The translations under genes and the position numbers were made by a program. From positions 31,429-95,428 of the forward strand of contig JAZJZQ010000084.1 of NCBI GenBank assembly GCA_040389625.1: a stretch of DNA of 64,000 bases, read 5' to 3'. Under the pieces are notes generated by a model. That model searched no databases, had not been told where the DNA came from, and saw nothing but the letters and a program-made list of their open reading frames with translations. Positions 13,889 through 50,435 of this stretch are shown here, in pieces; within the stretch, counting starts at the first letter, position 1; the number at the start of each line of letters is the position of its first letter. Source of the stretch: Pseudomonadota bacterium. GTDB lineage: Bacteria; Pseudomonadota; Gammaproteobacteria; Burkholderiales; Burkholderiaceae_D.

Positions 13889-13899
13889 GGGGAGCGACA

Positions 13900-32207: not shown

Positions 32208-32597
32208 TCAGATGGGCGGGGCCGGCGCGTCGACCAGGCGTTCCGGATCGAGCGCGCGGATGCGCTGTTCGACATAGTAACCGCCAGCTTCCGTATAGCG
32301 CAGGTATGTCCGTCCGCATATTGCGCATTCCACCACCGCACATCGGTTGTAAGGAAAATACCGTGGCGCGATAGGCGCCAGGGTGGACCAGTATTCCGTG
32401 GCCGACGGATGATACTCCGTGTAAGTCGGTTCGGCGTACGGATCGTCCATCAGGGTGCCGATCTGGCGCAGTTGCGATTCGGGAAACGCGGGCGGCACCC
32501 GTTCCCAGCCGGCGAACGGGCAGGCGGCGCAGCCGCACGGTTGCGTGACCGTCGCTGAACGGCGTGCCAGCGCCATGAGCGTATCGAATGTGAGCAT
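32208..32597 (-). CDS. Hypothetical Cys-rich protein (possible metal-binding)
   Basis: CGCAAC, YHPSATEYW, APIAPRYFPYNRC, CAICGR and LRYTEAGGYYVE; protein-like composition; start uncertain. Confidence 0.65.
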   Translation of the reverse strand: MLTFDTLMALARRSATVTQPCGCAACPFAGWERVPPAFPESQLRQIGTLMDDPYAEPTYTEYHPSATEYWSTLAPIAPRYFPYNRCAVVECAICGRTYLRYTEAGGYYVEQRIRALDPERLVDAPAPPI

Positions 32598-32897
32598 AGG
32601 GTTCAATGAGTCGGTGCGATGCAGACCGAATGGGGCACGGCCCGATGGCCGAACAGGAACAGTGTCCTCTAATTTGCCTGGTATATCAAACATCGAATAC
32701 TGAATGTTACATCAATAAAACTGAACCTGGTGGGATGGCTGTCGCGGTAAAGCACCGTCGCGATGTCGCTTGTATGCCGATGGCGCAGGCCGGTGATCGG
32801 CGCGCGGACAGGCGCATTGCGGGGCGATAGACTTGCCTTCCCATCGCTAAATCGAATTAAATGGCTGGATAGAACATAATTCGATAGCGGAGTAGGA

Positions 32898-33824
32898 ATG
32901 CGATTCAATAAACTCGATCTCAATTTGCTCGTTGGCCTGGATGCGCTGTTGGCCGAGCGCAGTATCACCCGGGCCGCCCGGCACTTGAATCTGAGTCAGT
33001 CGGCCACCAGCGGCATGCTGGCCAGGCTGCGCGACTATTTCGGCGATGAGCTGCTGACCCAGGTCGGCCGCAATATGCTGCTGACACCGCTCGGGGAAAA
33101 CCTGGCCGATCCGGTCCGCAACATCCTGCTGCAAATCCAGTCGACGGTGGAAACCCGGGTGGCCTTCGATCCGATCGAGTCGCGGCGGCACTTCCGCCTG
33201 GTCGCTTCCGATTACCCGATTTCGGTCCTGCTGGCCGAAGTGACCAGGCAACTGAGCCTGCAAGCGCCCAGGATCACCATGGAGATCCTCGCGCCCGACG
33301 ACGCGCCACACCTGCAACTGGACCGGGGCGATGTCGACCTGCTGTTTATGCCGGAAAAATTCATCCAGGGCGAACATCCCAGCGAGGCGCTGTTCGCCGA
33401 CAGCTATAGCTGCGTGGTCTGGACCGGCAATACCTTGGTGCAGGAGGTCATGTCACGCGAACAGTATCTGTCGCTCGGCCACGTCGCCACACTGTGGGGC
33501 AAACGGCAGCAGCCCAGCATGGAAGAGTGGTTCCTGCAGAATGCCGGGCTGATGCGCCATATCGAGGTCTCGGTAGGCAACTTCAACGCATTGCCGCACC
33601 TGCTGATCGGCACCAACCGTATCGCGACGATGCACACCAGGATGGCGCGCATGTTCGCCCAATACTACCCGTTGCGGCTCTTGCCGCCGCCGATAGACAT
33701 GCCGGCCGTCGTCATGAAAATGCAATGGCATAAATATCTCGACCAGGATCCGGCCCATCGCTGGTTCCGCCAGCTGGTGGCCCGCATCGCCATGCCTGAG
33801 CGCCAGCGCGGCGGCGATAATTAA
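32898..33824 (+). CDS. NodD-like LysR-family regulator
   Basis: MRFNKLDLNLLV...LARLRDYFGDELL, RHFRLVASDY, IGTNRIATMHTR and QWH...DPAHRW are NodD-subfamily hallmarks. Confidence 0.9.
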   Translation: MRFNKLDLNLLVGLDALLAERSITRAARHLNLSQSATSGMLARLRDYFGDELLTQVGRNMLLTPLGENLADPVRNILLQIQSTVETRVAFDPIESRRHFRLVASDYPISVLLAEVTRQLSLQAPRITMEILAPDDAPHLQLDRGDVDLLFMPEKFIQGEHPSEALFADSYSCVVWTGNTLVQEVMSREQYLSLGHVATLWGKRQQPSMEEWFLQNAGLMRHIEVSVGNFNALPHLLIGTNRIATMHTRMARMFAQYYPLRLLPPPIDMPAVVMKMQWHKYLDQDPAHRWFRQLVARIAMPERQRGGDN

Positions 33825-33825
33825 G

Positions 33826-33873
33826 TATCGCCGCTGGCGATACATCACATCGATATAACAGACTTCCCAATTA
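33826..33873 (+). promoter_or_regulatory. nod-box-like LysR operator upstream of the cytochrome b561 operon
   Basis: T-ATC-GCCGCTGGC-GAT-ACATCAC-ATC-GATATAACA-GAC-TTCCCAAT, i.e. ATC-N9-GAT-N7-ATC-N9-GAC. Confidence 0.65.
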
Positions 33874-33930
33874 ATAGCCTCGAAGCTACTCTGCTCGACC
33901 AGGAACCCTGATCTGAGAAGGAGCCGTTTC

Positions 33931-34521
33931 ATGGCCGCACCACACCCCGCATTCACCACGCCACGGCGTCCCGCGCTCGTCATCGCGCTGCATTGGTTGA
34001 CGCTGGCGGCGCTGCTGCTGGGTGTCGTCTTGATATTGGTACGCGATGGCGTCGACGGCCGCATACTGCGCGGCTGGTTGCTGGAAGGGCACCGGCACCT
34101 GGGCTTGCTGGTGCTGGGCTTGTTGCTGGCCCGCCTGGCGGTACGGCTGCTGCGCCATCGGCTGGCGGCGATCGGCGCCCATTCCCTGGCGGCGCGCGCC
34201 GCCGCCGCCGCCGTGCACGTGGCGCTCTATCTGCTGCTCGCGGCCGTTCCCATGCTCGGCTGGACCTTGAGTAACGCGCATGGACAGGAGCCCCATTTCC
34301 TCGGTCTGCCACTGCCGACACTGGTGGCTGCGGACGACGACCTGGCCGATACCCTGCAACTATGGCACGCCCGTGCCGCATGGACCCTGTTGATCCTGGG
34401 GCTGGTGCACGCTTTGGCTGCGCTCTGGCACCACTTCATCCGTCGCGACGCCGTGCTGGCCGCGATGCTGCCGTTCCGGCGGAATAGCGCCATCTCCGCC
34501 GAGGACAGTCTGGCGCCCTGA
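33931..34521 (+). CDS. Cytochrome b561 (CybB/YceJ-like di-heme inner-membrane protein)
   Basis: Four TM helices with His ligands (LHWL, GHRHLG, LWHA, LVHALAALWHH); AAGGAG RBS. Confidence 0.9.
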   Translation: MAAPHPAFTTPRRPALVIALHWLTLAALLLGVVLILVRDGVDGRILRGWLLEGHRHLGLLVLGLLLARLAVRLLRHRLAAIGAHSLAARAAAAAVHVALYLLLAAVPMLGWTLSNAHGQEPHFLGLPLPTLVAADDDLADTLQLWHARAAWTLLILGLVHALAALWHHFIRRDAVLAAMLPFRRNSAISAEDSLAP

Positions 34522-34571
34522 CCGGGGGCGTTGTTCGCAATACCATTCATAATCACTTATAGGGGACTTGC

Positions 34572-35939
34572 ATGACTTTGATGTTACGCGTGATACGCCG
34601 CGCCTCGGCGTTGACCGGACTGGCGCTGGCGCTGTTGAATTGCGGCCCGGCGCAAGCCTTGCCCAGCTTCGCCCGGCAGACCGGCTCCGAATGTGCGGCC
34701 TGCCACATCGGTGCCTACGGCCCGCACCTGACCGCCTTCGGCCAGCTGTTCAAGATGGCCGGCTACACCGACACCGGAGGCGATCAGGGCGCAGGCTCGG
34801 TCCCGCTGTCCGCGCGTCTGCGCATCAACAACATCAATCCGGTGCAGGGCGGTTCCGATACCCGCGTCGACGAGGCCGACGTTTATCTGGCCGGCCGTCT
34901 GATGAACAATGTCGGCGCCCTGGTCGACGTGCGCCGCGACGACGCGGGCAACGGGAGCGTCAACACCTACCTGCGCAATCTGGACCTGCGCTACGTGCGC
35001 GAGCTGAAGCTGGGGGACAAGGACGCGTTGCTCGGCCTGACGCTCAATAACAATCCCGGCATCCAGGACCCGATCGACGCCAATATGGCCTGGGGTTTCC
35101 CCGCGATCGCCACGGACGGCAGCCTGTTCAACCCTACCCCCGGCAGCGGGCAGTTGCCCGGCCGCGTGTTGGGCTTGACCGCCTATACCTATGTGGACAA
35201 GACCTGGTATGCGGAGGCAGGCGCTTACCGTACCATGTCGCGCAGCCTGCAGGACCGGCTGCGGCTGGACCCGACCGCGCAAGATCCGGGCGCCATGGAC
35301 GGCATCGCGCCTTACTGGCGTCTCGCCTATATCCATGATTTCAAGAGCCAGGCGGTGTCGCTGGGCTGGTACGGCATGACGGCGGACAAGCACCTGTCCG
35401 TACTGAGCGCACCGGGCGCGCCGCGCGTGACCGAGCGCAGCGGTCCGGCCGACCACTACCGCGATGTCGGCCTCGACGCCAGCTACCTGTATCGTGGCGA
35501 CCGCAGCAACACCTGGCAGCTGCGCGCCAACTTCGTCGAAGAGCGGCGCGACTATGGCAGCACACCGGTGGTGTTCGGCCGCACCGCCGGCGGCAGCGGC
35601 AAGGTGCGCGAGGCGACCTTCATGGCGACCTACAGCTTCAATGAAACCTGGTCGGCCAGTGCGGCGCGCCTGCGTTCGCGCACCAGCGAGGACCCGGTGC
35701 GCTACCTGAACGGCACGGCCGACAGCGACCTCAAATATTACGAATTGGCGTGGGTACCGTTCGGCAAGGAGGATTCGTGGGGCGCGCCATGGGCCAACCT
35801 GCGCATACTGGCCGCCTGGCTCAAGTTCGACAAGTTCAATGGCGCGTCCAACGATATCTTCGGGTCGCGCTTCGGTGGTCCGCTGGTCAATGCCAACGAT
35901 CTGAGTTCGCTGCAGATCTCGGCCTCGCTGACATTCTGA
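34572..35939 (+). CDS. cyc2: Cyc2-like outer-membrane monoheme cytochrome c-porin fusion
   Basis: Signal peptide (AQA), then LPSFARQTGSECAACH..GPHLTAFGQLFKMAGY (Cyc2 N-terminal motif); amphipathic beta-strands; C-terminal Phe. Confidence 0.8.
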   Translation: MTLMLRVIRRASALTGLALALLNCGPAQALPSFARQTGSECAACHIGAYGPHLTAFGQLFKMAGYTDTGGDQGAGSVPLSARLRINNINPVQGGSDTRVDEADVYLAGRLMNNVGALVDVRRDDAGNGSVNTYLRNLDLRYVRELKLGDKDALLGLTLNNNPGIQDPIDANMAWGFPAIATDGSLFNPTPGSGQLPGRVLGLTAYTYVDKTWYAEAGAYRTMSRSLQDRLRLDPTAQDPGAMDGIAPYWRLAYIHDFKSQAVSLGWYGMTADKHLSVLSAPGAPRVTERSGPADHYRDVGLDASYLYRGDRSNTWQLRANFVEERRDYGSTPVVFGRTAGGSGKVREATFMATYSFNETWSASAARLRSRTSEDPVRYLNGTADSDLKYYELAWVPFGKEDSWGAPWANLRILAAWLKFDKFNGASNDIFGSRFGGPLVNANDLSSLQISASLTF

Positions 35940-35956
35940 TGTGCAAGGAGAGGGCG

Positions 35957-36331
35957 ATGAAGAAGTGGTTCTGCCTGGCCGGCATGTTGCTGGCCGCAGC
36001 GGGCGCGCCGGCGCTGGCGGCCGGCGATGCCAGGGTGGGCGCGAAAGTGTTTTCCGCCGAATGTTCCGAGTGTCATAGCGTGAAGGAAGGACGCAACAAG
36101 AAGGGACCGTCGCTGTTCGCGCTGCTGGGGCGCAAGGCCGGCACCGTGCCGGAGGTCGATTACTCGGAGCCGCTGCGCAAGTCGGGCTGGGTATGGAATG
36201 AGGAGACCTTGCGCCGCTATCTCGGCAAGGCCACCAAGGAGACCAATCCCGGCAGCAAGATGAAGTATGACGGCCTGCGCGACGCCCAGGCGCTCGAGGA
36301 TCTGCTGGCGTATTTCAACACCGTCAAATAG
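35957..36331 (+). CDS. Periplasmic class I cytochrome c (c2-like)
   Basis: Signal peptide, CSECH, NKKGPSL, GRKAG and distal Met in PGSKM. Confidence 0.93.
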   Translation: MKKWFCLAGMLLAAAGAPALAAGDARVGAKVFSAECSECHSVKEGRNKKGPSLFALLGRKAGTVPEVDYSEPLRKSGWVWNEETLRRYLGKATKETNPGSKMKYDGLRDAQALEDLLAYFNTVK

Positions 36332-36367
36332 CGCCGGCGCGGCGGCGCCTGCGGTCTCGTCAAGGCG

Positions 36368-36408
36368 AAAGCCGGGGTCGGCCCACTTGGGCCTGGCGCC
36401 GGCTTTTT
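36368..36408 (+). terminator. Probable intrinsic terminator of the cytochrome operon
   Basis: AAAGCCGG...GGCCC-ACTT-GGGCC...CCGGC followed by TTTTT. Confidence 0.55.
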
Positions 36409-36576
36409 GCCGTGGGGCGGGCCCGCCGACCCGCGCCATGGCCGCCACCGTGGTCACGCCGGCTTGCCGCTGGCGCTCCTACAGGAAATTGGGGATTTCC
36501 TGACAGCGTGCGCCCGGCATGCCGTGATAAATTTCCCTACGGCAATTTCGCCGTCGATCAATCACCAGGAGTATCT

Positions 36577-37755
36577 ATGCAACGAACGACCGTGCTGTGC
36601 AAACTGAAACACCTGGCGCTGGCCGCCAGCCTGTGCTGGATGGCTGCCGCCCATGCCACCGACGTCACCACCGAGAGCGCGCCCGCCGACGGCTGGGCCG
36701 GCGCGTCAGGATCGACCAGCGGCGGCGCGGCGGCGGTGTCATCGCGCATCTACCTGGTGAGCTCACCGTCGCAATTGCTGGCGGCGATACGCGCGGCGGG
36801 CAGCTATCCCAAGATCATCAAGGTGGCCGGCACCATCGACATGACCGCCGCCGACAACGGTGGCCCGTTCACCAGCGAGACCGACCAGAACACGCGCAAC
36901 CGCATCACACTGAAGAGCAACACCACGCTGATCGGCCTGGGCCACGACGCCACGCTGCTCAACGCGGCGGTGCTGATCAAGAAGATCGACAACGTCATCG
37001 TGCGCAACCTGAATATCGTCAACCCCTGCGACATCGCGCCGGTATGGGATCCCACCGACGGCGCCAGCGGCAACTGGAATTCCCAGTACGACGGCATCGT
37101 GATCGACCAGTCCACCCACGTGTGGATCGACCACAACAGCTTCACCGATGCGCCGCAGACCGACGACCTGGCGCCGATCGAGAACGGCAAGCTCAAACAA
37201 TGCCATGACGGCGCGCTGGACATCAAGAACGCGGCCGACTTCGTCACCGTGTCCTACAACGTCTTCGACCAGCACGACAAGAACAACCTGGTCGGCTCTT
37301 CGGACAGCACCACCACGGACGACGGCCACCTGCGCGTGACCTTCCACCACAACCTGTTCTCGCGCATCGTGCAGCGCGCGCCGCGGGTGCGCTTCGGCAT
37401 GGTCCACGTGTACAACAACTACTATGCCGGCGACACCAGCGATCCGGTGTACGGCCATGAATACAGCCTGGGCGTGGGCTACATGGCCAAGATCATCTCG
37501 GAGAACAACGCCTTCGACATCGTGGGCGTTTCCTCGTGCGCCAAGATCGCGCTCAATCCGGGCTCCTACAGCAGGCCTGGCGCGATCACCGACGCCGGCT
37601 CGCTGTTGAACGGGGCGCCGCTGGCGTTGGCCACCGCCTGCGCGCTGCAAGCGAACGTCGGCTGGAGCGTGCCTTACCCGTACGTGCTGACGCCGGCGGA
37701 CGCGGTCAAGGACGCGGTGCAGGGCGCGGCCGGCGCCGGCAAGCTGGCCTTGTAA
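36577..37755 (+). CDS. Secreted pectate lyase (PL1)
   Basis: Signal peptide; SNTTLIG, NVIVRNL, VWIDHNSF, HDGALD, QRAPRVRFG and HVYNNYY motifs. Confidence 0.93.
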   Translation: MQRTTVLCKLKHLALAASLCWMAAAHATDVTTESAPADGWAGASGSTSGGAAAVSSRIYLVSSPSQLLAAIRAAGSYPKIIKVAGTIDMTAADNGGPFTSETDQNTRNRITLKSNTTLIGLGHDATLLNAAVLIKKIDNVIVRNLNIVNPCDIAPVWDPTDGASGNWNSQYDGIVIDQSTHVWIDHNSFTDAPQTDDLAPIENGKLKQCHDGALDIKNAADFVTVSYNVFDQHDKNNLVGSSDSTTTDDGHLRVTFHHNLFSRIVQRAPRVRFGMVHVYNNYYAGDTSDPVYGHEYSLGVGYMAKIISENNAFDIVGVSSCAKIALNPGSYSRPGAITDAGSLLNGAPLALATACALQANVGWSVPYPYVLTPADAVKDAVQGAAGAGKLAL

Positions 37756-37903: not shown

Positions 37904-38923
37904 ATGGCTAAGTATCGCAAGCAAGACGCACGCGCCTGGGCGCGTCAATACCTGGTGGGCTGCAGCGGCGTCACCATTCCCAGCTACAGCGCGGACCTCA
38001 AGCGGCTCAATGAACAGGGCATACGCCACGACATCGGCCTGGCCATGGAATACGGCTACAGCTATACCTTGCTGTGCTCGGAAGTGGCAATCACGCCGGA
38101 AGAAAACGCCCAGTTCACGGCCTGGGCCAGGGACACGGCGGGCGACCGCATGGGCCTGTTCTTCCATGCCGCCTTCGGCACGCTGCAGGAAAATATCGAG
38201 GCGGTCAAGCTGGCGGAGCAGGCCGGCGCCGACATCGTGCTGCTGTCCTATCCGCCCCAGTTCTGGCCCACCTCCTTGCAGGAAATCTACGACTACACCA
38301 AGGCCTTCTGCGACGCCACCGCGCTGGCGGTGATGCTGTTCCCGATCCCGCTGTGGGGTTTCGAGCGGGTGCATCCGGCCGGCATGCCGCCCGAGTTCGT
38401 GCGCCGGCTGCTGGACGATATCCCCAATATCGTGGCGATCAAATCGGAGCAGGGCTTCCCGCTCGTGTCGGGCCTGTGCGAGATGTGGCACCACTTCCGC
38501 GACGAAGTCGTCATCAGCTGCCCGATCGAGGGCGATGCCATTCCGATGATGAGCCTGATGAACCTGCAGTTCTCCGGCACCAGCAATACGCAGTGGATGG
38601 GCGCTTACTATCCCAAGGCCTTCGAACTGGCGCGCAGCGGCCACTGGGAGCAAGCCATGCAGCTGTTCTGGCAGATGGCGCCGGCCCGCAACGCGAACGG
38701 CGCGGCGGCCCAGAGTTATGCGGGCGGCACAGGGGTGCTCAATCGCAGCATGTGGAAATACCAGGACTGGCTGGCCGGCTTCAACGGCGGCCCGCTGCGG
38801 GCACCGGCCATGCGGGTGCCGGACCGCCTGATGAAGATGCTGCGCCAGGGACTGGCCGCTTCAGGCGTCACCCCGACCGCCGATCCGGACAGCCAGTTCA
38901 TCATTGGCCGCCATCCATCCTGA
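37904..38923 (+). CDS. DapA/NAL-family class I aldolase (hydratase-aldolase-like)
   Basis: GADIVLLSYP, IYDYTKAFCDAT and Schiff-base Lys in PNIVAIKSE; GGAGG RBS. Confidence 0.8.
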   Translation: MAKYRKQDARAWARQYLVGCSGVTIPSYSADLKRLNEQGIRHDIGLAMEYGYSYTLLCSEVAITPEENAQFTAWARDTAGDRMGLFFHAAFGTLQENIEAVKLAEQAGADIVLLSYPPQFWPTSLQEIYDYTKAFCDATALAVMLFPIPLWGFERVHPAGMPPEFVRRLLDDIPNIVAIKSEQGFPLVSGLCEMWHHFRDEVVISCPIEGDAIPMMSLMNLQFSGTSNTQWMGAYYPKAFELARSGHWEQAMQLFWQMAPARNANGAAAQSYAGGTGVLNRSMWKYQDWLAGFNGGPLRAPAMRVPDRLMKMLRQGLAASGVTPTADPDSQFIIGRHPS

Positions 38924-38944
38924 CACCATTAGCGAGGAAGCACC

Positions 38945-40396
38945 ATGCGATATCCTGAAGTTGACGCGGTCCCCAACGGTTTGTACATCAACGGCGCCTG
39001 GCGCCAGGCCAGCGGCGGCGAAACTTTCGACGTCACCGATCCGGCCACCGAAGAGGTGCTCGCCAGCGTGGCCAGCGCCACCGTCGACGACGCGCTCGAT
39101 GCGGTGGCCGCGGCGCATGCCGCCGGCGAGCGCTGGCGCGCCACGGCGCCACGCCTGCGCGGCGAAGTGCTGCGCAAGGCCTACGAGCTGCTGACCGGGC
39201 GCAGCGAGCAATTGGCGCGCCTGATCGTGCTCGAAAGCGGCAAGGCGCTGGCCGAGGCGCGCGGCGAAGTGCAATACGCCGCCGAGTTCCTGCGCTGGTA
39301 CGCGGAAGAGGCGGTGCGCATCGGCGGTGAAATCTGCACCGCGCCAGGCGGCGCCAACCGCATCGTGGTGCTGCGCCAGCCGATCGGGGTGGCGGTCCTG
39401 GTCACGCCATGGAATTTTCCGGCCGCCATGGCCACCCGCAAGATCGGCCCGGCGTTGGCCGCCGGCTGCACGGTGGTGTTGAAGCCCGCCTCCGAAACGC
39501 CGCTCACCGCGCTGGCCTTGGCCGCCCTGTTCGAGCAGGCCGGCGTGCCGCCCGGCGTGCTCAACGTGGTGCCGTCGCGCCAGTCGGGCCAGATCGTGAA
39601 GGCGATGCTGGGCGACCCCAGGGTCCGCAAGCTGTCGTTCACCGGCTCGACAGAGGTTGGCCGCACCCTGCTGGCGCAGGCGGCGGACAAGGTGGTCAAG
39701 TGCTCGATGGAGTTGGGCGGTAACGCGCCCTTCATCGTGCTGGCCGATGCCGACCTCGATCTGGCGGTCGCGTCGGCCATGGTGGCCAAGCTGCGCAACG
39801 GCGGCGAATCGTGTACCGCGGCCAACCGCTTCTATGTGGCGCGGCCGGTGGCGGAGGAATTCTGCCGGCGCTTCGCCGCGGCGATGGCCGCCGTCAAACT
39901 CGGTTCGGGGCTGGACGAGAGCGTGCAGCTGGGCCCCCTGGTCAACCGCGCCACGCTCGACAAGGTGGCGCGGCTGGTCGGCGAGGCGGTCGAACAGGGC
40001 GCGACGGTGCTGACCGGCGGCCGGGCGCGCGAAGGGCAGGGCTACTATTACGAGCCGACCCTGCTGGCCGGCGTGCGCCCCGACGCCGCCATCCTGCGCC
40101 AGGAAATCTTCGGACCGGTGGCGCCGGTCTGCGTATTCGACACGGTGGAGGAGGCGATCGCGCTGGCCAACGATACCGAGTTCGGGCTGGTGGCCTTCGT
40201 GCATACACGCGACCTGGCGCAGGCACTGGCGGTGTCCGAACGCATCGAGGCCGGCATGGTCGGCATCAACCGGGGCGTGGTGTCCGATCCGGCGGCGCCG
40301 TTCGGCGGCTGGAAGCAAAGCGGGGTTGGACGCGAAGGCGGACATGACGGCTTGCTCGAATACCTGGAATCCAAGTATATTTGCGTATCCTGGTAG
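38945..40396 (+). CDS. NAD(P)-dependent aldehyde dehydrogenase, succinate-semialdehyde dehydrogenase-like
   Basis: TPWNFP, SFTGSTEVG, MELGGNAP, GESCTAAN, EIFGP and PFGGWKQSG motifs. Confidence 0.92.
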   Translation: MRYPEVDAVPNGLYINGAWRQASGGETFDVTDPATEEVLASVASATVDDALDAVAAAHAAGERWRATAPRLRGEVLRKAYELLTGRSEQLARLIVLESGKALAEARGEVQYAAEFLRWYAEEAVRIGGEICTAPGGANRIVVLRQPIGVAVLVTPWNFPAAMATRKIGPALAAGCTVVLKPASETPLTALALAALFEQAGVPPGVLNVVPSRQSGQIVKAMLGDPRVRKLSFTGSTEVGRTLLAQAADKVVKCSMELGGNAPFIVLADADLDLAVASAMVAKLRNGGESCTAANRFYVARPVAEEFCRRFAAAMAAVKLGSGLDESVQLGPLVNRATLDKVARLVGEAVEQGATVLTGGRAREGQGYYYEPTLLAGVRPDAAILRQEIFGPVAPVCVFDTVEEAIALANDTEFGLVAFVHTRDLAQALAVSERIEAGMVGINRGVVSDPAAPFGGWKQSGVGREGGHDGLLEYLESKYICVSW

Positions 40397-40408
40397 AACC
40401 CGCCCCCT

Positions 40409-41302
40409 ATGCTGCCGATACTCGATCCGCGCTGGCACCTGTTTGCAGCCGTCGCCCAGCTGGGCAGCCTGACGCGCGCCGCCGACGCGCTCAACTCGCC
40501 GCAATCGGTGATCAGCCGCCAGATCGCGCAGCTGGAAACCCAATGCGGCGGCAAACTGTTCCGGCGCACCGGGCGCGGCGTGGTGCTGACCGAATTCGGC
40601 CAGATCGTCCACGCCCGTATCGTGCCCATGATCGCTGAAGCCGACCAGCTGGCCGACGAGATCCTGACCACCAACGGCATACCCATCGGCGAGGTCCACG
40701 TGGGGCTGTTGCCGTCGTCGGTGCCCCAATTCGCCGGCCGGCTGTTTCGCGCGGCGCGCGAGCAGCTGCCGCGCGTCCGCCTGCATCTGGCCGAAGGTGC
40801 CAGCGCCCAGCTGGAAGAGTGGCTCGATGCCGGACGCCTGGACCTGGCGCTGCTGCTGCGCGAAGGGCAGGAGGCCGGTCCCGGCGTCACCTGCCTGCGC
40901 AGCATGGCGCTCGACCTGATCGGCCCGGCCGGCGACCCCGCGCTGGCCGGCGATCACATCGCGTTCGCCGCGCTCGCCTGCCTGCCGCTGATCGTGCCGG
41001 CCGAGCCGCACGTGCTGCGCAAGCGGCTCGACGCGCTGGCCCGCGAGCGCGGCCTGCGCCTGACGGTCGCGATGGAGGCCGACACCATCGAACTGCAGAA
41101 GGAACTTGCGATTGCGGGGGCGGGCTACGCCATCGTCGCCTCGGTGGCCGGCACCGTGGCCGGCAACGCCCGGCTGGCCGCCGCCCGCATCGTCCAGCCG
41201 GAGCTGATGCGCAGCATCGTGCTGGGCACCACCCGGCACCGGCCCCATACATTGGCCACGCGGGCCGTCTCGCGCCTGATCGCCTCCCTGTTTGCCGCCT
41301 GA
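40409..41302 (+). CDS. LysR-family regulator (Nac-like)
   Basis: GSLTRAA...QSVISRQIAQLE...LFRRTGRGVVLTEFG HTH. Confidence 0.92.
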   Translation: MLPILDPRWHLFAAVAQLGSLTRAADALNSPQSVISRQIAQLETQCGGKLFRRTGRGVVLTEFGQIVHARIVPMIAEADQLADEILTTNGIPIGEVHVGLLPSSVPQFAGRLFRAAREQLPRVRLHLAEGASAQLEEWLDAGRLDLALLLREGQEAGPGVTCLRSMALDLIGPAGDPALAGDHIAFAALACLPLIVPAEPHVLRKRLDALARERGLRLTVAMEADTIELQKELAIAGAGYAIVASVAGTVAGNARLAAARIVQPELMRSIVLGTTRHRPHTLATRAVSRLIASLFAA

Positions 41303-41424
41303 ACGCGGCGCCGCCGCCGTTATCCGGATTTGCCAAAGCTGCTATGCCGGCGCCGCGCTTCCCCGCCATGGCGCCGCCCGCTAAGGTATGCCTGTCATTC
41401 ATTCAATCGATAGGAGTCCTGCCC

Positions 41425-42411
41425 ATGTCCACCTTGTTCTTAACCGACGGCGACGTCAGTGCGTTGCACGATTGGAAAGCCGCGATCGCGGCGCTGCGTG
41501 CCGCCTATGCGGCGCCGATCGAGGCGCGGATGGTGCCGCCCCGTTCCATGGCGCGCGGCGACGGCATCTGGCTGCGCGGCCTGAGCGCGGTGTCGCCCAC
41601 CGGCGGCCATCTGGGCAGCAAGCAGATCGCCGCCTCGCCCCGCGCCGGCTGCGCCAGCTACCTGGTGTCGCTGTTCGACGCCCGGACGATGGAGCTGGCG
41701 GCGCTGATCGACGGCAACCAGATCACCGCCATCCGCACTGCGGCGACGGCGGCGCTGGCGGTCGATGCGCTGGCGCCGCGATGCCCGCTGCGGGTGGCGA
41801 TGATCGGTTCCGGTTTCGAGGCGCGCGCGCAGCTGCAGGCGCTGCACGCGGCGCGCGAGATCCGCTCGGTGGCCGTCTTCAGCCCGACGCCGGCCAGCCG
41901 CCAGCGCTTCGCCGACGATTGCCAGGCGATGCTGGGGCTGGAGGTGCACGCGGCCGGCACGCCGCGCCAGGCGCTGGAAGGCGCCGACGTGGTGATCTGC
42001 GCCGCACGCTCGCGCGACGAATCGCCGGTCTTGCTCGGAGCCTGGCTGGCGCCGGGCATGACGGTGGTGTCGATTGGATCGACGCTGCCGGAACAGCGCG
42101 AGGTCGACGTGGAAGTGATACGGCGCGCCGCGCTGATCGTGGCGGATATGGTGGAGGAGGTGAGCCATGATACCGGCGACCTGATCGCCGCTACCCGCGA
42201 CGGCGTTCAGTTCAGCCACAAGCTGCATGCGCTGGCCGATCTGATCGGGCAGCGCGTGCCGGGACGGTGCGCGGCGGACGACATCGTACTCTACAAATCG
42301 GTAGGGTCGGCCCTGCAGGATGTGGCGACGGCGGAAATGCTGCTGCAGCGTGCGCGCAGCCTGGGATTGGGCACGGAGCTGCCGGTCAGCATCGCGCCGG
42401 TGCAGAAGTGA
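41425..42411 (+). CDS. Ornithine cyclodeaminase/mu-crystallin family (imine reductase-like)
   Basis: ITAIRTAA, IGSGFEA, VSIGS and YKSVGSALQD motifs; AGGAG RBS. Confidence 0.9.
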   Translation: MSTLFLTDGDVSALHDWKAAIAALRAAYAAPIEARMVPPRSMARGDGIWLRGLSAVSPTGGHLGSKQIAASPRAGCASYLVSLFDARTMELAALIDGNQITAIRTAATAALAVDALAPRCPLRVAMIGSGFEARAQLQALHAAREIRSVAVFSPTPASRQRFADDCQAMLGLEVHAAGTPRQALEGADVVICAARSRDESPVLLGAWLAPGMTVVSIGSTLPEQREVDVEVIRRAALIVADMVEEVSHDTGDLIAATRDGVQFSHKLHALADLIGQRVPGRCAADDIVLYKSVGSALQDVATAEMLLQRARSLGLGTELPVSIAPVQK

Positions 42412-42462: not shown

Positions 42463-43410
42463 TTAATGAGCGGGCTCGAGCGCCTGCCGGATCAGGCGGG
42501 CCGCGTCGCCATCATGGCGGAAGCCGGCAGCCAGGGCCGCGGCTGCGTGCAGCGCCGGATAGCGGCCGAACAGGGCTTCGATGCGCGGGTCCGGCTGGTG
42601 ACTGAGCAGCTGCCGGCAGTGGGCGCCATAGCGTTGCGCCAGCGCGGCCAGGATCTGTTCCATGCTCAGGTGAAGCACCGGCAGCTGCCAGCGGCGCGAC
42701 GCCGGCGCGTCCGCGGTGCTCAGCGCCGCCCCATGCAGCAGGTTGTCGACGCAGCAGGGCAGCGACATCCACCAGGCCGTCGCCTGCGCCGATACCGGGC
42801 AGACGTACGGTTCGCCGGCCGCCAGCCGGTGCAGGACGAGGCTCATGAAGGCCGAACCGTGCCCCGATTCGGTGGCCGGCCGGGCCACGATGCCGGGCAG
42901 GCGCAGGCTGACCGCGTCCAGCTCGCCGCGCCGGCTCAGATCGGCCAGTTCGATTTCCGCCATCAGCTTGTGGGCGCCGTAGCTGAGCGCCGGCCGGGCC
43001 GGCTGGTCGTCGTGCACCGCGTGCGCGCCGAGCGGACCGTAGACCGCGACCGAACTGGCAAACACGAAGCGGGGCGCGCGCCGCCGCTGGCGGCCCTGCG
43101 CGGCGAGCCGGTGCGCCAGCGTCAGCGTGGCCTGCAAATTGACCGAATAGCCCAGGGCATGGTCGCGCTCGGCCAGCGAACCGGGCACACTGGCCAGATG
43201 GAACACGGTGTCGGCCGGCAGCTGCAGCGCCTCATCCAGCAGGGCGGGGTCGCCGAATGAGCCTTGGAGCTGGCGCGCAGGCGCAGCGCAAGATGCGCTG
43301 TCGAACGACTGGTCGATCAGCGTCAACCGGTGCCGCCGGTCTTGCTGCAGGCGGCGTACCAGCGCGCGCCCGACAAAGCCGTTGGCGCCGGTGATGACGA
43401 TATGGCTCAT
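42463..43410 (-). CDS. fdeJ: NAD-dependent epimerase/dehydratase (FdeJ-like)
   Basis: TGANGFVG, FASSVAVYG, YGAHK and RLPGIVARP motifs; position in the fde-like cluster. Confidence 0.75.
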   Translation of the reverse strand: MSHIVITGANGFVGRALVRRLQQDRRHRLTLIDQSFDSASCAAPARQLQGSFGDPALLDEALQLPADTVFHLASVPGSLAERDHALGYSVNLQATLTLAHRLAAQGRQRRRAPRFVFASSVAVYGPLGAHAVHDDQPARPALSYGAHKLMAEIELADLSRRGELDAVSLRLPGIVARPATESGHGSAFMSLVLHRLAAGEPYVCPVSAQATAWWMSLPCCVDNLLHGAALSTADAPASRRWQLPVLHLSMEQILAALAQRYGAHCRQLLSHQPDPRIEALFGRYPALHAAAALAAGFRHDGDAARLIRQALEPAH

Positions 43411-44396
43411 GCCGGGCGCTCCGCCCGCACTACTGTCTGCTCGATGATGCCGAACGGGCCGTGGCCGGCGCCGGGCCAGAGCGCTTCCATGCGGACCTTG
43501 TCGCCGAAGCGCATGAAGTTGGTGCGGGCACCGCCCAGGTCGATCATCTCGATCACGCGCCGCTCCGCGATGCAGGCCGAACCGGCCGCGCGGCTGGCGT
43601 TGGACACGGTGCCGGTGCCGATGATGGTGCCCGGCGTCAGGCGCCGCGTGCGCGCCGCATGGGCGATCAGCTCGCCGAAGCCGAAGCCCATCTCGCCGCC
43701 ATGGGGCTGGCCGAAGCGCTCGCCGTTCCAGCTGACGTCCAGTTTCAAATGTACCCGGCCGTCGTGCCACGCCTCACCCAGTTCGTCGGGGGTGACGGCG
43801 ACCGGCGCGAAGCTGGTCGACGGCTTGGCCTGCAGGAAGCCGAAGCCGGTGCGCATCTCGCGCGGCCCCATGGCGCGCAGGCTCCAGTCGTTCAGCTGCA
43901 CCACCAGCCGCACCGACGCCAGCGCCGCGGCCGGCGTGCTGGCCATCGCCACCGTGTCGACGATGACGCCGAATTCGCCCTCGAAGTCGATGCCGTCCGC
44001 CTCGCTGGGCAGCGCCACGTCGTCGTGTGGGCCGAGGAAGTCGTCGCTGGCGCCCTGGTACATCAGGGGTATGGTCTCCAGGTCGGGAATGGGCGGGGTG
44101 TCGAAAGCTTGCGCCATCAGGTGCGCATGGTTCAGGAAGGCGGAACCGTCGCACCATTGCGGGCTGCGCGGCAGCGGCGCGCCGCAGCGGCGGGGATCGA
44201 AAGGCTGGCTGTCCAGTTTGCCGGTATTGAGCGCATCGTAGCGTTCGTGCAGCGCCGCTTCGACGTCGTTCCAGTGCTGCAGCGCGTACAACAGGGAAGG
44301 GGCGATGGCGCCGGCTTCGGCGCAGCGGGTCAGGTCGCGCGAGACGATCAGCAGGCGCCCGTCCAGGGTATGGTCTTGCAGGGTAGCGAATTTCAT
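43407..44396 (-). CDS. fdeI: Fumarylacetoacetate hydrolase family (FdeI-like)
   Basis: MYQGASD, IDFEGE, NDWSLR, QAKP and GTGTVSN motifs. Confidence 0.8.
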   Translation of the reverse strand: MKFATLQDHTLDGRLLIVSRDLTRCAEAGAIAPSLLYALQHWNDVEAALHERYDALNTGKLDSQPFDPRRCGAPLPRSPQWCDGSAFLNHAHLMAQAFDTPPIPDLETIPLMYQGASDDFLGPHDDVALPSEADGIDFEGEFGVIVDTVAMASTPAAALASVRLVVQLNDWSLRAMGPREMRTGFGFLQAKPSTSFAPVAVTPDELGEAWHDGRVHLKLDVSWNGERFGQPHGGEMGFGFGELIAHAARTRRLTPGTIIGTGTVSNASRAAGSACIAERRVIEMIDLGGARTNFMRFGDKVRMEALWPGAGHGPFGIIEQTVVRAERPA

Positions 44397-44423
44397 CGGT
44401 GGTTTTCCGTCTGTAGGTTGAGC

Positions 44424-45002
44424 TCAGCGTTGCGCCAGCGCGGCGGCGATGGCCGGGTCGTAGGTGGCGTCGATCAGCGCGAACAGGACGCGGCAAGGAC
44501 GCTGCGAGCGGTTGGCCCAGGCATGGTTGGTACCGCGCTGTATCACCACGCTGCCGGGCCGCAGCTGCACTTCGGAGTCGTCCAGCACCAGCGTCAGTTC
44601 GCCGTCGATCACGATGCCGTAGTCGACCGATTCGGTGCGGTGCATCAGCGGGTGCGGCGAATGGGCGCGCACCGTCGATGCGGCGGCGTCGCCGACCTCG
44701 TTGAAGGCTTGCTGCATGCGGGCCGCGCCATGGGCCAGGAACTCGGCGGTATCGGGAGGAATGTCGACGAAGCGCAGCCGCGTGCCCAGTTTCGGTGGCG
44801 GCAGCGTGAGCGCACCGATGGTGGGGTCGGGCCCGTTGTCGGCTGGCGCCGGCGTGGCGGCGGTGCTCCACACTTCGTGGAACACGGTGCCGGGAATGGC
44901 CGCCAGTTCGACCACGGTAGGCAGCGCGCCGTCGCTGCTGACGATGGCCTTGCCGGCCGCGTCATGGCCGGTGACGACCCGGTGTATGGGGGGAAAGGTC
45001 AT
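44424..45002 (-). CDS. fdeH: Cupin domain protein (FdeH-like)
   Basis: RVVTGHDAAGKA, MHRTESVDYGIV and QRGTNHAWANRS motifs. Confidence 0.8.
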   Translation of the reverse strand: MTFPPIHRVVTGHDAAGKAIVSSDGALPTVVELAAIPGTVFHEVWSTAATPAPADNGPDPTIGALTLPPPKLGTRLRFVDIPPDTAEFLAHGAARMQQAFNEVGDAAASTVRAHSPHPLMHRTESVDYGIVIDGELTLVLDDSEVQLRPGSVVIQRGTNHAWANRSQRPCRVLFALIDATYDPAIAAALAQR

Positions 45003-45021
45003 AGCGAAACTCCAGTTTCTA

Positions 45022-46182
45022 TCATGAGGACAGTACGGTGGCGCGGCGGCGGCCGGCCTGCGCGAAGCAGTAGACCGCGGCAATGGCCAGCACCACGGCG
45101 GCAGTTCCCAGCATGCCGTAGCCGGCATGCTGGACGAGGGTGCCGCCCAGCACCGGACCGATAGCGGCGCCCACCATCAGCATGGCCGGCGTTGCCGACA
45201 GCGCGCGGCCGCCGGGGTCGAGCTGCGCCACCAGGCCGAAGGCGAAGGTGTGGGTGAAGATCATCACGGCCGCGAACAGGGCGCCGGCGATGGCATAGGG
45301 GGCGTAGCCCGTGCTGGCGGCGATGGTCAGCGCCAGCGCGGCCTGCGCCACCGGCCCGCCCAGCACGACCAGGTGCGCCGGCCAGCGCCGTTGCAGCAGG
45401 GCCGCCAGCGGCGCCGGGATCAGGTTGACGAAGCCCAGCGCGATCAGCACGGTGGTGACGGCGCCGGGCGCGAAGCCGCGGTCGGCGCCGATCCGCTCGA
45501 GGAAGCTGAACATCATCGCCTGCACCAGTCCCATGCAGCTGATGCCCAGCGCGGCGAACCAGACCGCGACGCTGACGCTCCCGGTGCCGCCGGCGTGGCG
45601 GGCCCGGGCCGCGGCGGTGGGGCCGGCCGGGAAGGCGACGGCGGTGACCACGGCGGCCACCATCATCACGGCGGCGAATACCCGGAACAGCACCGGGCCG
45701 CCGGCGGCCGCCACCAGGCCCGGTGTCAGGCCGAGGAAGGCGATGGCGAACATGCCCAGTGCCAGGCCGGCCAGCGCGAACATGCGGTGCGGATTGCCGC
45801 TGCGACCCATGGTGCCGTGGGTCACGCTCAGGGCGCTGCCCGCCGCCGCGCCGGCCAGCAGGTGCAGCAGCGCCATCAGCGTGAAGTCGGTGCTATCGGC
45901 GACGCCGAAGAAGGCGAAGGCCGCCAGCGCGAAGCCGCATGGCGCCACCACGTCGGCGCGCAGCCGGTGAAACAGCGGCGCGCATACCAGGCTGCAGCCG
46001 ACCGCGCCCAGCAGGAACAGCGTGGCCAGCGCCCCGGCGCGCTGCGGATCAAAGCCATAGCGGGTGATCAGCGTGCCGACCCACACCGGCAGCGCCACCA
46101 GGTCCACCATGCCAGCGCAGTGCGCCACCATCAGCGCGATACGGCCGGGCCAGCGCAGGTCGAACTCGTCGTGATTGTCCAT
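45022..46182 (-). CDS. fdeG: MFS transporter (FdeG-like)
   Basis: About 12 hydrophobic helices; AHCAGMVDLVALPVWVG N-terminus; GAGGA RBS. Confidence 0.75.
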   Translation of the reverse strand: MDNHDEFDLRWPGRIALMVAHCAGMVDLVALPVWVGTLITRYGFDPQRAGALATLFLLGAVGCSLVCAPLFHRLRADVVAPCGFALAAFAFFGVADSTDFTLMALLHLLAGAAAGSALSVTHGTMGRSGNPHRMFALAGLALGMFAIAFLGLTPGLVAAAGGPVLFRVFAAVMMVAAVVTAVAFPAGPTAAARARHAGGTGSVSVAVWFAALGISCMGLVQAMMFSFLERIGADRGFAPGAVTTVLIALGFVNLIPAPLAALLQRRWPAHLVVLGGPVAQAALALTIAASTGYAPYAIAGALFAAVMIFTHTFAFGLVAQLDPGGRALSATPAMLMVGAAIGPVLGGTLVQHAGYGMLGTAAVVLAIAAVYCFAQAGRRRATVLSS

Positions 46183-46196
46183 GGAGGTCCTCACGC

Positions 46197-47327
46197 TCAG
46201 ATCGGCGCGGCCAGCGCCATGTGGGTGTCGCGCATGATCTGCGCATGTTCGGCCTTGTCGCCGCCGGTGATCTCGATCTCGCCCAGCCGGCCCGAGTTTT
46301 CCACCACCATGCGGCAGCGTTCCCAGCGCCGGCTTTCGAACTGCCTGAGCGCCTGTTCGACACTGGCCGCACTGCCCAGCTCCTCGGCCAACACGATGGC
46401 GTCCTCGATGCCGATGCAGGCGCCGGACGCCATGTGCGGCGTGGTGGCGTGCACGGTGTCGCCGATCAGCACCACGCGGCCTTGATGCCATGGCTGGCGC
46501 ACCAGCAGCTGCTCGAGCGGACGGTAGACGATTTGCGAGTCCTCGGTGAGCGCGGCGCGGCATTTCTGCATCAACGGCGCGGAGAAAGGGGCCAGCAGTT
46601 CCGACAGCATGGGCGCGAACTGCTTGGGGTCGATCTGCACGTTGTCGACGCGGTCCTCGGTAACGAACAGATACATCTGGTCGCGCGAGACCGGGTTGAC
46701 GCCGGTCTTGATCTTGGGGCCGACCCACATCATGGCCCGTTCCACTTCGGCCGGGCGCGGCAGCACGGCGCGCCACACGCACTGGCCGGTGTATTGCGGC
46801 TGCGGCGCCTGCGGCAGCACCGCCTCGCGCACCTTGGAGTACAGGCCGTCGGCGCCGATCACCAGGTCGTAGTTGCGCGTCTCGCCGTCGGTGAAGGTGA
46901 CTTCGACGCCGCCGGCGTGCTGGCGCAACGCGGTGAAGGTGCAGCCCAGGCGCACCTTGGCGCCGCTGGCGATGGTGGCGTCGGCCAGGATATTGGCCAG
47001 CACCGGGCGCATGATGGCGCCGCCGCCCGGGATCTCGGGACCGGCCAGGCGCGGCGTCGGCAGGGAAGCGATATGCTGTCCGTGCGGCAGGAACAGGTCG
47101 ACGCCGTCGGCCGCCGCGCCTTGCGCCATGAATTGCTCGAGGATGCCCAGCGTCTTGAAGGCGCGCAGGGTGGCGCCGCCCAGGCTGATGCCGGCGCCAT
47201 AGGAACGCCAGCCCGGATCGATTTCGGCCACTTCCACGGCCAGGCCTTGCTTGCGCAGCTCGATGGCCGCGGACATGCCGGAAAAGCCGCCGCCGATGAT
47301 CAGGATGTTTTGTGCTGGGGATGTCAT
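46197..47327 (-). CDS. fdeE: FAD-dependent monooxygenase (FdeE-like flavonoid hydroxylase)
   Basis: GGGFSG, GADGLYS and LIGDTVHATTPHMASGACIGIEDA motifs; cluster context. Confidence 0.8.
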   Translation of the reverse strand: MTSPAQNILIIGGGFSGMSAAIELRKQGLAVEVAEIDPGWRSYGAGISLGGATLRAFKTLGILEQFMAQGAAADGVDLFLPHGQHIASLPTPRLAGPEIPGGGAIMRPVLANILADATIASGAKVRLGCTFTALRQHAGGVEVTFTDGETRNYDLVIGADGLYSKVREAVLPQAPQPQYTGQCVWRAVLPRPAEVERAMMWVGPKIKTGVNPVSRDQMYLFVTEDRVDNVQIDPKQFAPMLSELLAPFSAPLMQKCRAALTEDSQIVYRPLEQLLVRQPWHQGRVVLIGDTVHATTPHMASGACIGIEDAIVLAEELGSAASVEQALRQFESRRWERCRMVVENSGRLGEIEITGGDKAEHAQIMRDTHMALAAPI

Positions 47328-47394
47328 GTGAGTCTCCGTTGGTTCAATGGTGTCGTTGTATGCTGCTTTCGGCCTAGTGTGCGGATTCAGGCCT

Positions 47395-47442
47395 TATTTG
47401 TAAAATTGATTAAATGCATGGCTTATATCGGCGCCATCGATG
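47395..47442 (-). promoter_or_regulatory. nod-box-like operator upstream of the monooxygenase
   Basis: Minus strand C-ATC-GATGGCGCC-GAT-ATAAGCC-ATG-CATTTAATC-AAT-TTTACAAATA; near-duplicate of 58149-58196. Confidence 0.8.
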
Positions 47443-49072
47443 GGTGCGGCGCCTGGAACAGGCGCACCAGGCCGACCAGCCGTCCCGCTTCGGCGCCGAG
47501 GACGGCGGCGGTATCGACCGAGGCGGCGCCCATGGCCGCGTTCTGCTGCGTCATCGCGTCCAGCTGGTTCAATACGGCGCCGATTTCCCGCAGGCTGGCG
47601 TTCTGCTCGATGGCGGCGCGGGAAATGTCGCTGACCAGCGCCGCCACGCTGTCGGTCATCGCCATCAGCGTGGCGGCATTGGCCGCCGCGTGCGCCACCT
47701 GCGCGCCGCTGGCGGCGATGCGGCTGTCGGCCTCACGGCTGAGATTGCCGATCTGGGTCGCGGCGCCGGCCGCGCGCTGGGCCAGCGTGCGGACCTCGGC
47801 CGCGACCACCGCGAAGCCGCGCCCATGTTCGCCGGCGCGCGCCGCCTCCACGGCGGCGTTGAGCGCCAGGATATTGGTCTGGAAGGCGATGCCGCTGATG
47901 ATGCCGACGATATCGTCGATCTTGCGGGTGGCCTGGCGGATGCCCTCCATGCCCACCGTGACCTGCGCCATGGCGCTGCCGCCGTCCTGGGCCTGGCGCC
48001 GCACGTTGTCGGTCTGGGTCTTTGCCAGTTGGGCCGCGTCGGCGCTGCGGGTCACCATGGCCGCCAGGTCGTGCATGGCGGCGGTGGTCTGGCGCAGTCC
48101 GGACGCGGCGTGCTCGGTGCGTTCGGACAGCTCGCGGCTGCTGACGGCGATGGCGCCGCTGGCGCCGGCGATGGCGTCGGACGAGGCGCCCAGGCCGCCG
48201 ACGATCTGGCGCAGCTTGTCCTGCATGGCGCCGATCGCGCCCAGCAGCCGCCCCAGTTCGTCCGCGCGCCGGACCTTGACCTCCGACGCCAGGTCGCCTC
48301 CCGCAATCGCCTCGGCCACCTGGGTCGCCTCGGCCACCGGCAGCGTGATGTTGCGGGCCAGGCCGAGCGCCAGCGGCACGCTGGCCGTGGTCACCAGCGC
48401 CAGGGCCGACAGCAGCAGGACGCGGGCCTGGCGGGCCTGCTCCCTGGTCTGCTGATAGGCCGCCTCGTTGCCGCGGGCGATATGGGTGACAATGGCGGCG
48501 ATGCGTGCCCGCCATTGCTGCTCGGCGCGCTCGGTCTGCAGCAGCAAGGCGAACGCCGCCTCGGCACCGGCGCCTTGCATCACCAGCTCCACTGCGCGCT
48601 CGTGCACCGGGGCGATCTCGGCGCGCACGGCGCGGATGGCGGCCAGCTGGCTGGCAAGTGTCGGTTCCGCTTCGCCCGCTTCCGGCGGCAGGGCCGCCAG
48701 CTGAGCCTCGGTGCGGTCATAGCCTGCCTTGGCTTGCCGCAGCAGCAGCGACTGGGCCTTCAAGTCTTCGGCGTCCGTCATCGGCAGCAGCGTGCGCTCC
48801 TGCATGCCGACGTCGAGCAGCGCCGTCTGCAGGCGGTGCGCCAGATCGGCACGGCGGGCGTCGCGTTCGACGATCCGCTGCAACTGGCCCGACGCCGATT
48901 GCAGGTGCCACAGCGCCAGCACCGTAGTGGCGCCGAACAGCAGCATCAGCGACCCCATGCCCAGCAACAGCCGGGGCCGCAGGCCCAGTTGGCGCCGCCG
49001 CGGCTGGCCTTGGGACGGTTGCGGCCGAAGCAGCGCCAAGGTCGAAGGCCGGCGCCAGCGTAGTAGTTTCAT
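47423..49072 (-). CDS. Methyl-accepting chemotaxis protein within the flavonoid cluster
   Basis: TM-4HB-TM-HAMP architecture and [30 protein letters not shown] signature. Confidence 0.93.
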
Positions 49073-49090
49073 GTTGTCTCCCGCTTTTTT

Positions 49091-49444: not shown

Positions 49445-49454
49445 GGCGCGCCGC

Positions 49455-50417: not shown

Positions 50418-50435
50418 GTTTTTTTCCTTGTTGGC

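Follow-up and report, generated by a model that had tools for sequence, protein, structure and literature searches.

A conserved b561-Cyc2-cytochrome c module and its probable association with an fde-type regulon

Results

The 64,000-nucleotide (nt) stretch analysed here (the window; contig JAZJZQ010000084.1 of GenBank assembly GCA_040389625.1, positions 31,429 to 95,428 of the forward strand, from a pseudomonadotal bacterium of the Burkholderiaceae_D) contains three consecutive plus-strand genes for a CybB-type di-haem cytochrome b561 (196 amino acids (aa), 33931-34521), a Cyc2-family fused monohaem cytochrome-porin (455 aa, 34572-35939) and a periplasmic class I cytochrome c of the c2/mitochondrial type (124 aa, 35957-36331). 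As far as sequence comparisons can tell, this trio, to which we refer as the cassette, is a conserved envelope-spanning module with one haem protein per envelope layer, and for the cassette in the window there is good sequence evidence that it belongs to an fde-type regulon. Tentatively, and with a confidence that stays somewhat short of even, we propose that the module would be switched on together with fde-like genes by a NodD/FdeR-type LysR regulator sensing a flavonoid or a related phenolic, and that it would carry electrons outward.

The evidence for a module comes from the comparison of Cyc2 loci. These were collected by alignment from named genomes (the best 80 of 589 confirmed), metagenomes (24) and genome searches, as single-protein locus scans returned none. 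A tree of 225 rows was calculated with quick methods (FastTree and smaller IQ-TREE runs), with 8 duplicate or distant loci and the loci without an intact motif-bearing frame dropped. One Cyc2 clade of 131 rows received a FastTree support of 91, and two smaller IQ-TREE runs gave 95 and 98 to the matching group. Among the 58 fully flanked loci of this clade, 43 encode b561 together with cytochrome c, nine a NapC/NirT protein together with cytochrome c, five only cytochrome c, and one neither. A periplasmic cytochrome c plus a quinone-linked protein (b561 or NapC) is thus kept at 52 of 58 clade loci but at none of the 81 fully flanked loci outside the clade, 43 of which have c4 instead; these counts overstate independence, as the sample is biased to the kin of the query and related loci share traits. 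They agree with a predicted span from the outer membrane through the periplasm to the quinone pool, as it had been proposed in an earlier sequence-only reading of this DNA.

The identity of the replacement partner is given by Pfam. As the NapC loci group together with good support and are surrounded by loci that have b561, one quinone-linked protein (NapC) has apparently replaced another (b561) in this group. The NapC/NirT gene is divergent from cyc2 and co-directional with genes for a response regulator and a 2CSK_N kinase in loci L012, L024, L039, L116, L120 and L121, and it lies downstream of cyc2 in L015 and L041. In Uliginosibacterium gangwonense (L046, 5316-11261), the trio and a c4-type Cyc2 pair are found within 6 kb.

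In the window, all four open reading frames of the sequence-only reading, i.e. the trio and a preceding gene for a 308-aa NodD/FdeR-like LysR regulator (32898-33824, +; Pfam HTH_1 and LysR_substrate), were confirmed on one strand at 32898-36331. The set is as compact as had been described, with gaps of 106 nt (LysR-b561), 50 nt (b561-Cyc2) and 17 nt (Cyc2-cytochrome c), and a purine-rich ribosome site precedes each of the three cassette genes. That it is also “apparently terminated” holds only in part: a probable terminator hairpin with a U-run follows the cytochrome c gene (36364-36411, +) and was equalled by only 2 of 200 shuffles in a fold test (z -2.8), but it is absent from the output of a terminator scan. 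The GC content at third codon positions of the cassette genes (0.82-0.85) lies inside the range of their neighbours, and a composition anomaly that would point to recent transfer was rejected on this ground. According to the named homologs of a regulator encoded nearby, the host is of the Oxalobacteraceae type and close to Duganella. The host genome is 82% complete and has cytochrome c assembly genes; no RuBisCO match was found in it. Motif checks for bc1, NarG and NosZ in the same genome gave no matches either, but they were too crude to be used.

The 455-aa protein carries the motif AxPxFAR[Q/K][T/Y] ahead of a single CxxCH, with PxL behind, just as the quoted N-terminus had indicated, and this N-terminus is signal-peptide-like as judged by eye. 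The motif spacers are 3 and 5 residues, compared with 5 and 4 stated for Cyc2 (10.1101/228056). Pfam, NCBIfam and a sequence search of solved structures gave no match for this protein. An AlphaFold2 model predicts a 16-strand barrel with a mean confidence score (pLDDT) of 86, which resembles 16-strand porins at a Z of about 22, with OprP/OprO and general porins among the fold matches, and which thereby backs the barrel that had been postulated; the haem end is poorly modelled (residues 24-45, pLDDT <50). With its 455 aa, the protein exceeds the Cyc2 minimum of 365 aa. It thus has the sequence and, in the model, also the fold by which Cyc2 proteins are recognised, whereas an Fe(II)-oxidase activity is only putative. 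Homologs were identified by scoring 7998 candidates, 1567 of which qualified. Most Cyc2 homologs outside cluster 1 lack functional tests (10.1101/228056), and the link that PMC10654088 draws between Cyc2 of A. ferrooxidans and homologs of Rhodanobacteraceae and Burkholderiales hints at a membership of the window protein in cluster 2. Two further Cyc2-like genes exist in the host genome (C99:44-2040, L001; C351:5728-7041, L002), one of them paired with a dihaem c4 and the other standing alone near a topoisomerase gene, and both types also occur in a few genus relatives.

The assignment of the inner-membrane partner to di-haem b561 cytochromes of the CybB type withstood closer inspection. The protein matches PF01292 (Ni_hydr_CYTB) and aligns to E. 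coli CybB (PDB 5OC0, E 6e-14), with the equivalents of the quinone-site residues H87, H158, D164 and R63 (defined in PMC11869295) retained; its score is under the NCBIfam PRK11513 cut-off. The predicted haem ligands H21, H54, H146 and H160 and the predicted quinone-site residues H96, H167, D173 and R72 are highly conserved among the 44 cassette b561s: H54, H146, H160 and H167 occur in all 44, H21 in 43, H96 and R72 in 42 each, and position 173 is D in 41 and E in three. The class I cytochrome c was likewise corroborated by Pfam (Cytochrom_C), by the haem ligands His40/Met102, the latter of which is retained in 69 of 70 aligned rows, and by mitochondrial c and c2 as its top PDB matches. Its mature part has a net charge of +4. 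The b561 of the window, for its part, has an acidic periplasmic loop (D135/D137/D140). The charge of the second periplasmic loop has a median of -4 in the 44 cassette b561s versus 0 in 29 non-cassette b561s, and D137 is found in 43/44 versus 1/29, although these controls are mostly of one subfamily and therefore count as one contrast and not as many. On this sequence basis, the acidic loop is a plausible dock for the basic cytochrome c and would be a poor lure for superoxide.

The latter aspect is relevant because the trio might also serve the defence against reactive oxygen and form no continuous wire at all. Polyphenol autoxidation would then generate superoxide, b561 would be a superoxide:quinone oxidoreductase of the CybB type, and radicals would be scavenged independently by cytochrome c and by Cyc2. 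The retained CybB fold and quinone site are in agreement with such a function, as is a basic residue that 37 of 44 cassette b561s have kept close to their first periplasmic loop; moreover, the 8-hydroxyflavonoids made by FdeE are unstable (PMC11303751), and LcoA, another b561, confers protection from lipid peroxidation (PMC9113575). However, of the superoxide-collecting positive patch one basic position is kept, and both loops together have a median charge of -4 (a sequence count only), so that the overall acidic periplasmic face should repel superoxide. In addition, NapC, which is no superoxide enzyme, stands in for b561 at nine loci. We thus assign a low probability to this explanation.

The regulators of the cassette differ from one group of loci to the next. 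At the 44 clade loci with wide flanks, there are 18 OmpR-type regulators paired with a 2CSK_N kinase, 13 genes for extracytoplasmic function (ECF) sigma factors, one NodD-like LysR and one lone response regulator, and 11 loci have none. The nearest models of these kinase-regulator pairs are QseC and PmrA/TctD/QseB, all below cut-off. As the NodD-like LysR occurs at one of 44 loci, it was rejected as a general component of the module. In Dyella, Luteibacter and related loci (L003, 7961-11160, and 12 similar ones), the trio is followed by a small gene without known family and the ECF sigma factor gene, and then by genes for a zf-HC2-type anti-sigma factor and a subtilase. The many kinase pairs and sigma factor genes might be taken to mean that the module is a redox-sensing accessory, which reports the outside redox state to a regulator without any useful flux. 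But regulators vary by subclade while the trio is constant, the window has neither an OmpR-type pair nor an ECF sigma factor, and LysR regulators sense cytoplasmic ligands, and this possibility thus appears very improbable.

For the window, the control by a NodD-like LysR and a nod box can be addressed more specifically. The matrix used here was derived from 19 sites in fde-type promoters of relatives, which share a 49-bp nod-box-like element. The candidate site ATC-N9-GAT-N7-ATC-N9-GAC in front of the b561 gene (33825-33873, +) ranks 4th of 11,175,048 genome positions with 27.1 bits, while the next background site has 10.8. The three positions that rank higher are the DUF1302, fdeE-like and fdeG-like promoters of the same contig, in a cluster 6-24 kb from the cassette. 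The site ranks third when anchor columns are excluded, and of the 6 strand-hits that its strict pattern (start 33827) has across the 5.6 Mb genome, 3 are on this contig. The 5' part is strong, but the degenerate 3' half reaches no more than -0.5 bits by itself (rank 15,984). With a matrix from six fdeG-type rows alone, one of which was spurious, the ranks of the site were only 69 to 112, while all box types minus that row gave the 4th rank. The same bases also form a perfect 8-bp hairpin. By rank and pattern count, the nod-box-like site is nevertheless present above chance expectation, as had been claimed.

The homologs of the adjacent LysR carry the name nod-box-dependent activators, and the LysR at 32898-33824 is likely the cassette activator. 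When 19 candidates were scored per genome, close homologs were found in nine genus genomes, and all nine are among the 29 of 118 genus genomes that have an fdeC-like gene. Eight of 12 regions with a LysR homolog contain fde-like enzyme genes and one contains uptake genes only; in two of the other three, fdeC-like genes are found at distances of 15 and 25 kb, and in the third there are none. The layout of LysR gene, box and same-strand target occurs twice in L287. According to this distribution, the adjacent LysR appears to be a regulator that belongs with fde-type clusters, and a flavonoid is its putative activating ligand. As the DNA-binding ends of the two NodD-like LysR regulators in the window agree at 41/60 positions (whole proteins 42%), either of them could read the 33825 box. 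An inverted repeat, ATCGAATT-N19-AATTCGAT, lies just 5' of the LysR gene (32854-32888) and has no score on the fde matrix.

The catabolic genes to which this control would tie the cassette are fde-like genes at 42466-51596 (-), assigned by Pfam against the fde list in PMC11069340 (supplement Fig. S5) and by synteny in 10 genus relatives. Their order is hydrolase, vicinal oxygen chelate (VOC) dioxygenase, Rieske protein, chemoreceptor, flavin adenine dinucleotide (FAD) monooxygenase, major facilitator superfamily (MFS) transporter, cupin, fumarylacetoacetate (FAA) hydrolase and epimerase (an fdeB-C-D-E-F-H-I-J pattern), with a matrix-detected box at 47395-47443. The inserted chemoreceptor gene (47426-48946) is shared with the closest relative. 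Genes for MMPL, YCF48-like, DUF1329 and DUF1302 uptake proteins adjoin (51615-58197, -) and have the strongest box (58149-58197); they are followed at 58221-60016 (+) by the second NodD-like LysR, a box (59131-59179) and an fdeG-like cyclase. These genes represent the associated regulon and not cassette members. Altogether, 9 of the 10 gene types of the fde operon for naringenin in Herbaspirillum have a counterpart in the cluster of the window, in a corresponding order and with fdeA unmatched (PMC11069340), and the cyclase gene is, unlike in the Herbaspirillum fde order, relocated beside the second LysR.

A phenolic link is seen also at a few other loci. In L107 (Cyc2 at 64%), a 47.6-bit box lies ahead of b561 and a NodD-like gene lies downstream. 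In L110 (44%), the cassette is inserted between an FdeR-like gene and genes for FAD monooxygenase, EthD, and fdeC- and fdeE-like proteins, and on either side of it lies a copy of a duplicated promoter and leader (89 nt at 85% and 66 nt at 88%, 2.65 kb apart). A single AraC gene separates the cassette from fdeJ-I-H-G-F-like genes in L108/L109 (51%), and in L111/L112 (44%) the cassette adjoins two VanA-type demethylases. It could in principle be that a mobile cassette was captured by chance behind a left-over FdeR-type gene and box, with no phenolic role. No close cassette copy was found in the 118 genus genomes searched or in 400 family and 400 order genomes (best 42% in these two sets), the closest fde-bearing relative carries other genes at the cassette position, and the degenerate 3' half of the box would also be compatible with such an event. 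The fde-like gene/box link recurs, however, in different layouts on separate branches (L107, L108/109, L110), and we consider chance capture improbable.

How far the link to phenolics can be generalised is limited by several observations that speak against it. It is based on the window and the few loci just mentioned, of which L107 is frameshifted and on a possibly error-prone contig. Among 45 b561 upstream regions, the matrix scores only those of the window and L107, and L108, L110 and L111 score nothing. The 33825 box lacks the 3' half that is present in the three fde-like promoters. The fde assignment is one by Pfam type and gene order and not by identity to the Herbaspirillum proteins, and the term “flavonoid” thus refers to gene content. 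Finally, an fdeC-like gene occurs in only 1 of 46 wider cassette genomes, and a Cyc2 match in none of the 29 fdeC-positive genus genomes, which means that neither cassette nor fde genes need each other. As the fetched fde regions of the 10 syntenic relatives had no match to cassette genes either, the cassette was rejected as a required part of fde clusters. Judged from these distributions, it is an optional satellite of an fde-type regulon in one subclade. The idea of a NodD-like LysR and nod box tied to plant-phenolic catabolism therefore survives for this subclade, by box rank and by the LysR homologs in fde-like clusters, but not as a general feature of the system (1/44 loci with the LysR, 2/45 upstream regions with a score).

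Some genes nearby complete the picture of the locus. A block of dihydrodipicolinate synthase (DHDPS)-family, aldehyde dehydrogenase, LysR and cyclodeaminase-family genes (37904-42411) accompanies fde-like clusters and adjoins the cassette in L107 and L110. Divergent from the first LysR, a 161-aa Cys-rich protein without Pfam match is encoded (32208-32693, -). A homolog in L279 (58%) borders an fde-like cluster, and another in L013 (41%) is encoded at a distance of 4 kb from the trio. The pectate lyase gene behind the cassette (36577-37755) was rejected as a cassette member, as it has no match at other loci. Together with carboxyltransferase and AtuA-type genes at 8247-15705, it is in keeping with a plant-associated lifestyle.

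Discussion

How would such a module work? Once the trio is induced by the phenolic-sensing LysR together with the fde-like genes, quinol would be oxidised at the quinone site of b561 and the electrons would cross its two haems. The basic cytochrome c could dock on the acidic periplasmic loop, take over the electrons and pass them to the Cyc2 haem, from where they would reach a small soluble oxidant that enters the pore. A narrow single-haem pore suits small soluble acceptors (10.1101/228056). The most likely acceptors would be oxidised polyphenols (quinones) or their Fe(III) chelates, and this acceptor is a guess within the logic of the regulon, which includes the unstable products of FdeE. 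Their reduction would detoxify polyphenols, restore a ring-cleavage substrate, or free iron.

The direction of electron flow is the critical aspect of this mechanism. Class I cytochromes c of the c2/mitochondrial type have potentials of about +250 to +370 mV. For E. coli CybB, haem potentials of -23 and +48 mV have been determined, and CybB also runs in reverse from quinol (10.1101/2021.12.23.473985). Together with the NapC swap and the loop charge, these potentials suggest that the sole downhill route via all three proteins leads from quinol to b561 or NapC, then to cytochrome c and finally to Cyc2. As inward flow through CybB has been suggested to build proton-motive force (PMC11869295), the membrane potential should favour the outward direction as well. 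MtoD, at +155 mV, was found to be too high to feed the NapC-family protein ImoA (PMC13390432). The sequence-only reading had offered Fe(II) oxidation, redox cycling of phenolics and redox defence as functions of the wire; of these, Fe(II) oxidation has the least in its favour, since electrons are unlikely to pass from a His/Met cytochrome c to a CybB-type b561 or to NapC.

Several aspects weigh against outward flow, however. The module is known here from its genes, with direction, contacts, substrate and inducer deduced from them, and the potentials are those of relatives and not of these particular haems. Neighbouring genes of the Mto cluster proved to be non-partners (PMC13390432), and every biochemically tested Cyc2 oxidises Fe(II), with potentials of +208 and +560 mV (10.1101/228056). 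It is thus conceivable, though rather unlikely in our view, that the conduit works inward: Cyc2 would oxidise Fe(II) that originates from flavonoid-reduced soil iron, or reduced polyphenols, and cytochrome c would pass the electrons to a terminal oxidase, while b561 or NapC would supply this cytochrome c as well, by way of a side branch. The host genome indeed contains haem-copper oxidase motifs and encodes a CcoP-like protein. For MtoD, an oxidase has been proposed as the destination of its electrons in spite of the genes around it (PMC13390432), and a RuBisCO-family match exists in 13 of the 46 cassette genomes. On the other hand, the host and 33 of the 46 cassette genomes lack such a match, no oxidase gene is among the annotated neighbours, and in the host a dihaem c4 is paired with another Cyc2. 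Above all, inward flow leaves unexplained why a quinone-linked protein is encoded beside the gene in 52 of 58 loci.

More broadly, it may be speculated, albeit with considerable doubt, that this Cyc2 clade works in reverse as a quinol-fed surface reductase, which root-zone bacteria of the Oxalobacteraceae type have put under NodD-like flavonoid control to reduce polyphenol quinones or iron chelates extracellularly. The presence of Cyc2 is commonly read as a sign of iron oxidation (10.1101/228056), and if electrons run outward, iron-cycling inventories misread the Cyc2 genes of this clade, and extracellular electron transfer would be linked to a plant signal of the nod type. Members of the clade come with constant partners and are carried by cultured bacteria (Dyella, Luteibacter, Pelomonas, Uliginosibacterium), and in the subclade of the window there is a candidate inducer as well, all of which makes the role of a Cyc2 of non-iron-oxidisers testable.

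Comparison with known systems

The barrel protein resembles Cyc2 of A. ferrooxidans, Cyc2PV-1 of Mariprofundus and Cyt572 of Leptospirillum (10.1101/228056) in the motif before a single CxxCH, the PxL, the signal-peptide-like N-terminus and the predicted 16-strand barrel. Its partners differ from those described for Cyc2, which are c4/Cyc1, rusticyanin and oxidases (PMC5566968, PMC10654088), as the window has a c2-type cytochrome and b561, with NapC at some loci, and the heterotrophic host and the nod-type box are further differences. No b561-Cyc2-cytochrome c operon and no Cyc2-flavonoid link was found described in the literature, although the query for the latter was weak, being swamped by flavonoid papers, and published Cyc2 trees or supplements may show the clade.

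In its architecture, the module is similar to the Mto cluster of Sideroxydans ES-1 (MtoAB-MtoD-ImoA; PMC13390432), where an outer-membrane conduit, a small periplasmic cytochrome and a quinone-active inner-membrane protein are also encoded together, and to the Cytc1-Cytc2-Cytbc operon of culture KS, the quinone-active part of which is a b561 fusion that the text of He et al. 2017 (PMC5566968), as far as available, mentions only beside mto genes. However, MtoA is a decahaem protein in a 26-strand porin and not a fused monohaem porin, the hosts of Mto are autotrophic iron oxidisers, and the inward flow of the Mto type uses the low-potential carrier PmcA, no counterpart of which was seen here. 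The b561 shares the four-helix di-haem organisation, the haem ligands and the quinone-site residues with the superoxide:quinone oxidoreductase CybB of E. coli (PDB 5OC0) and with Burkholderia LcoA-BcnA, but CybB stands alone and LcoA is encoded with a lipocalin, whereas the b561 of the window is linked to cytochrome c and Cyc2 and has the acidic periplasmic loop.

With respect to regulation, the gene types of the window cluster, the NodD-like regulators and the nod-box-like promoters correspond to fde/FdeR of Herbaspirillum seropedicae and to the ifc cluster of Variovorax. The descriptions of these clusters in the available parts of PMC11069340 and its supplements name no cytochrome, in contrast to the window with its optional cassette. 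In light of these comparisons, the cassette is a real, conserved variant of Cyc2 systems, and its putative fde-type control is the new element.

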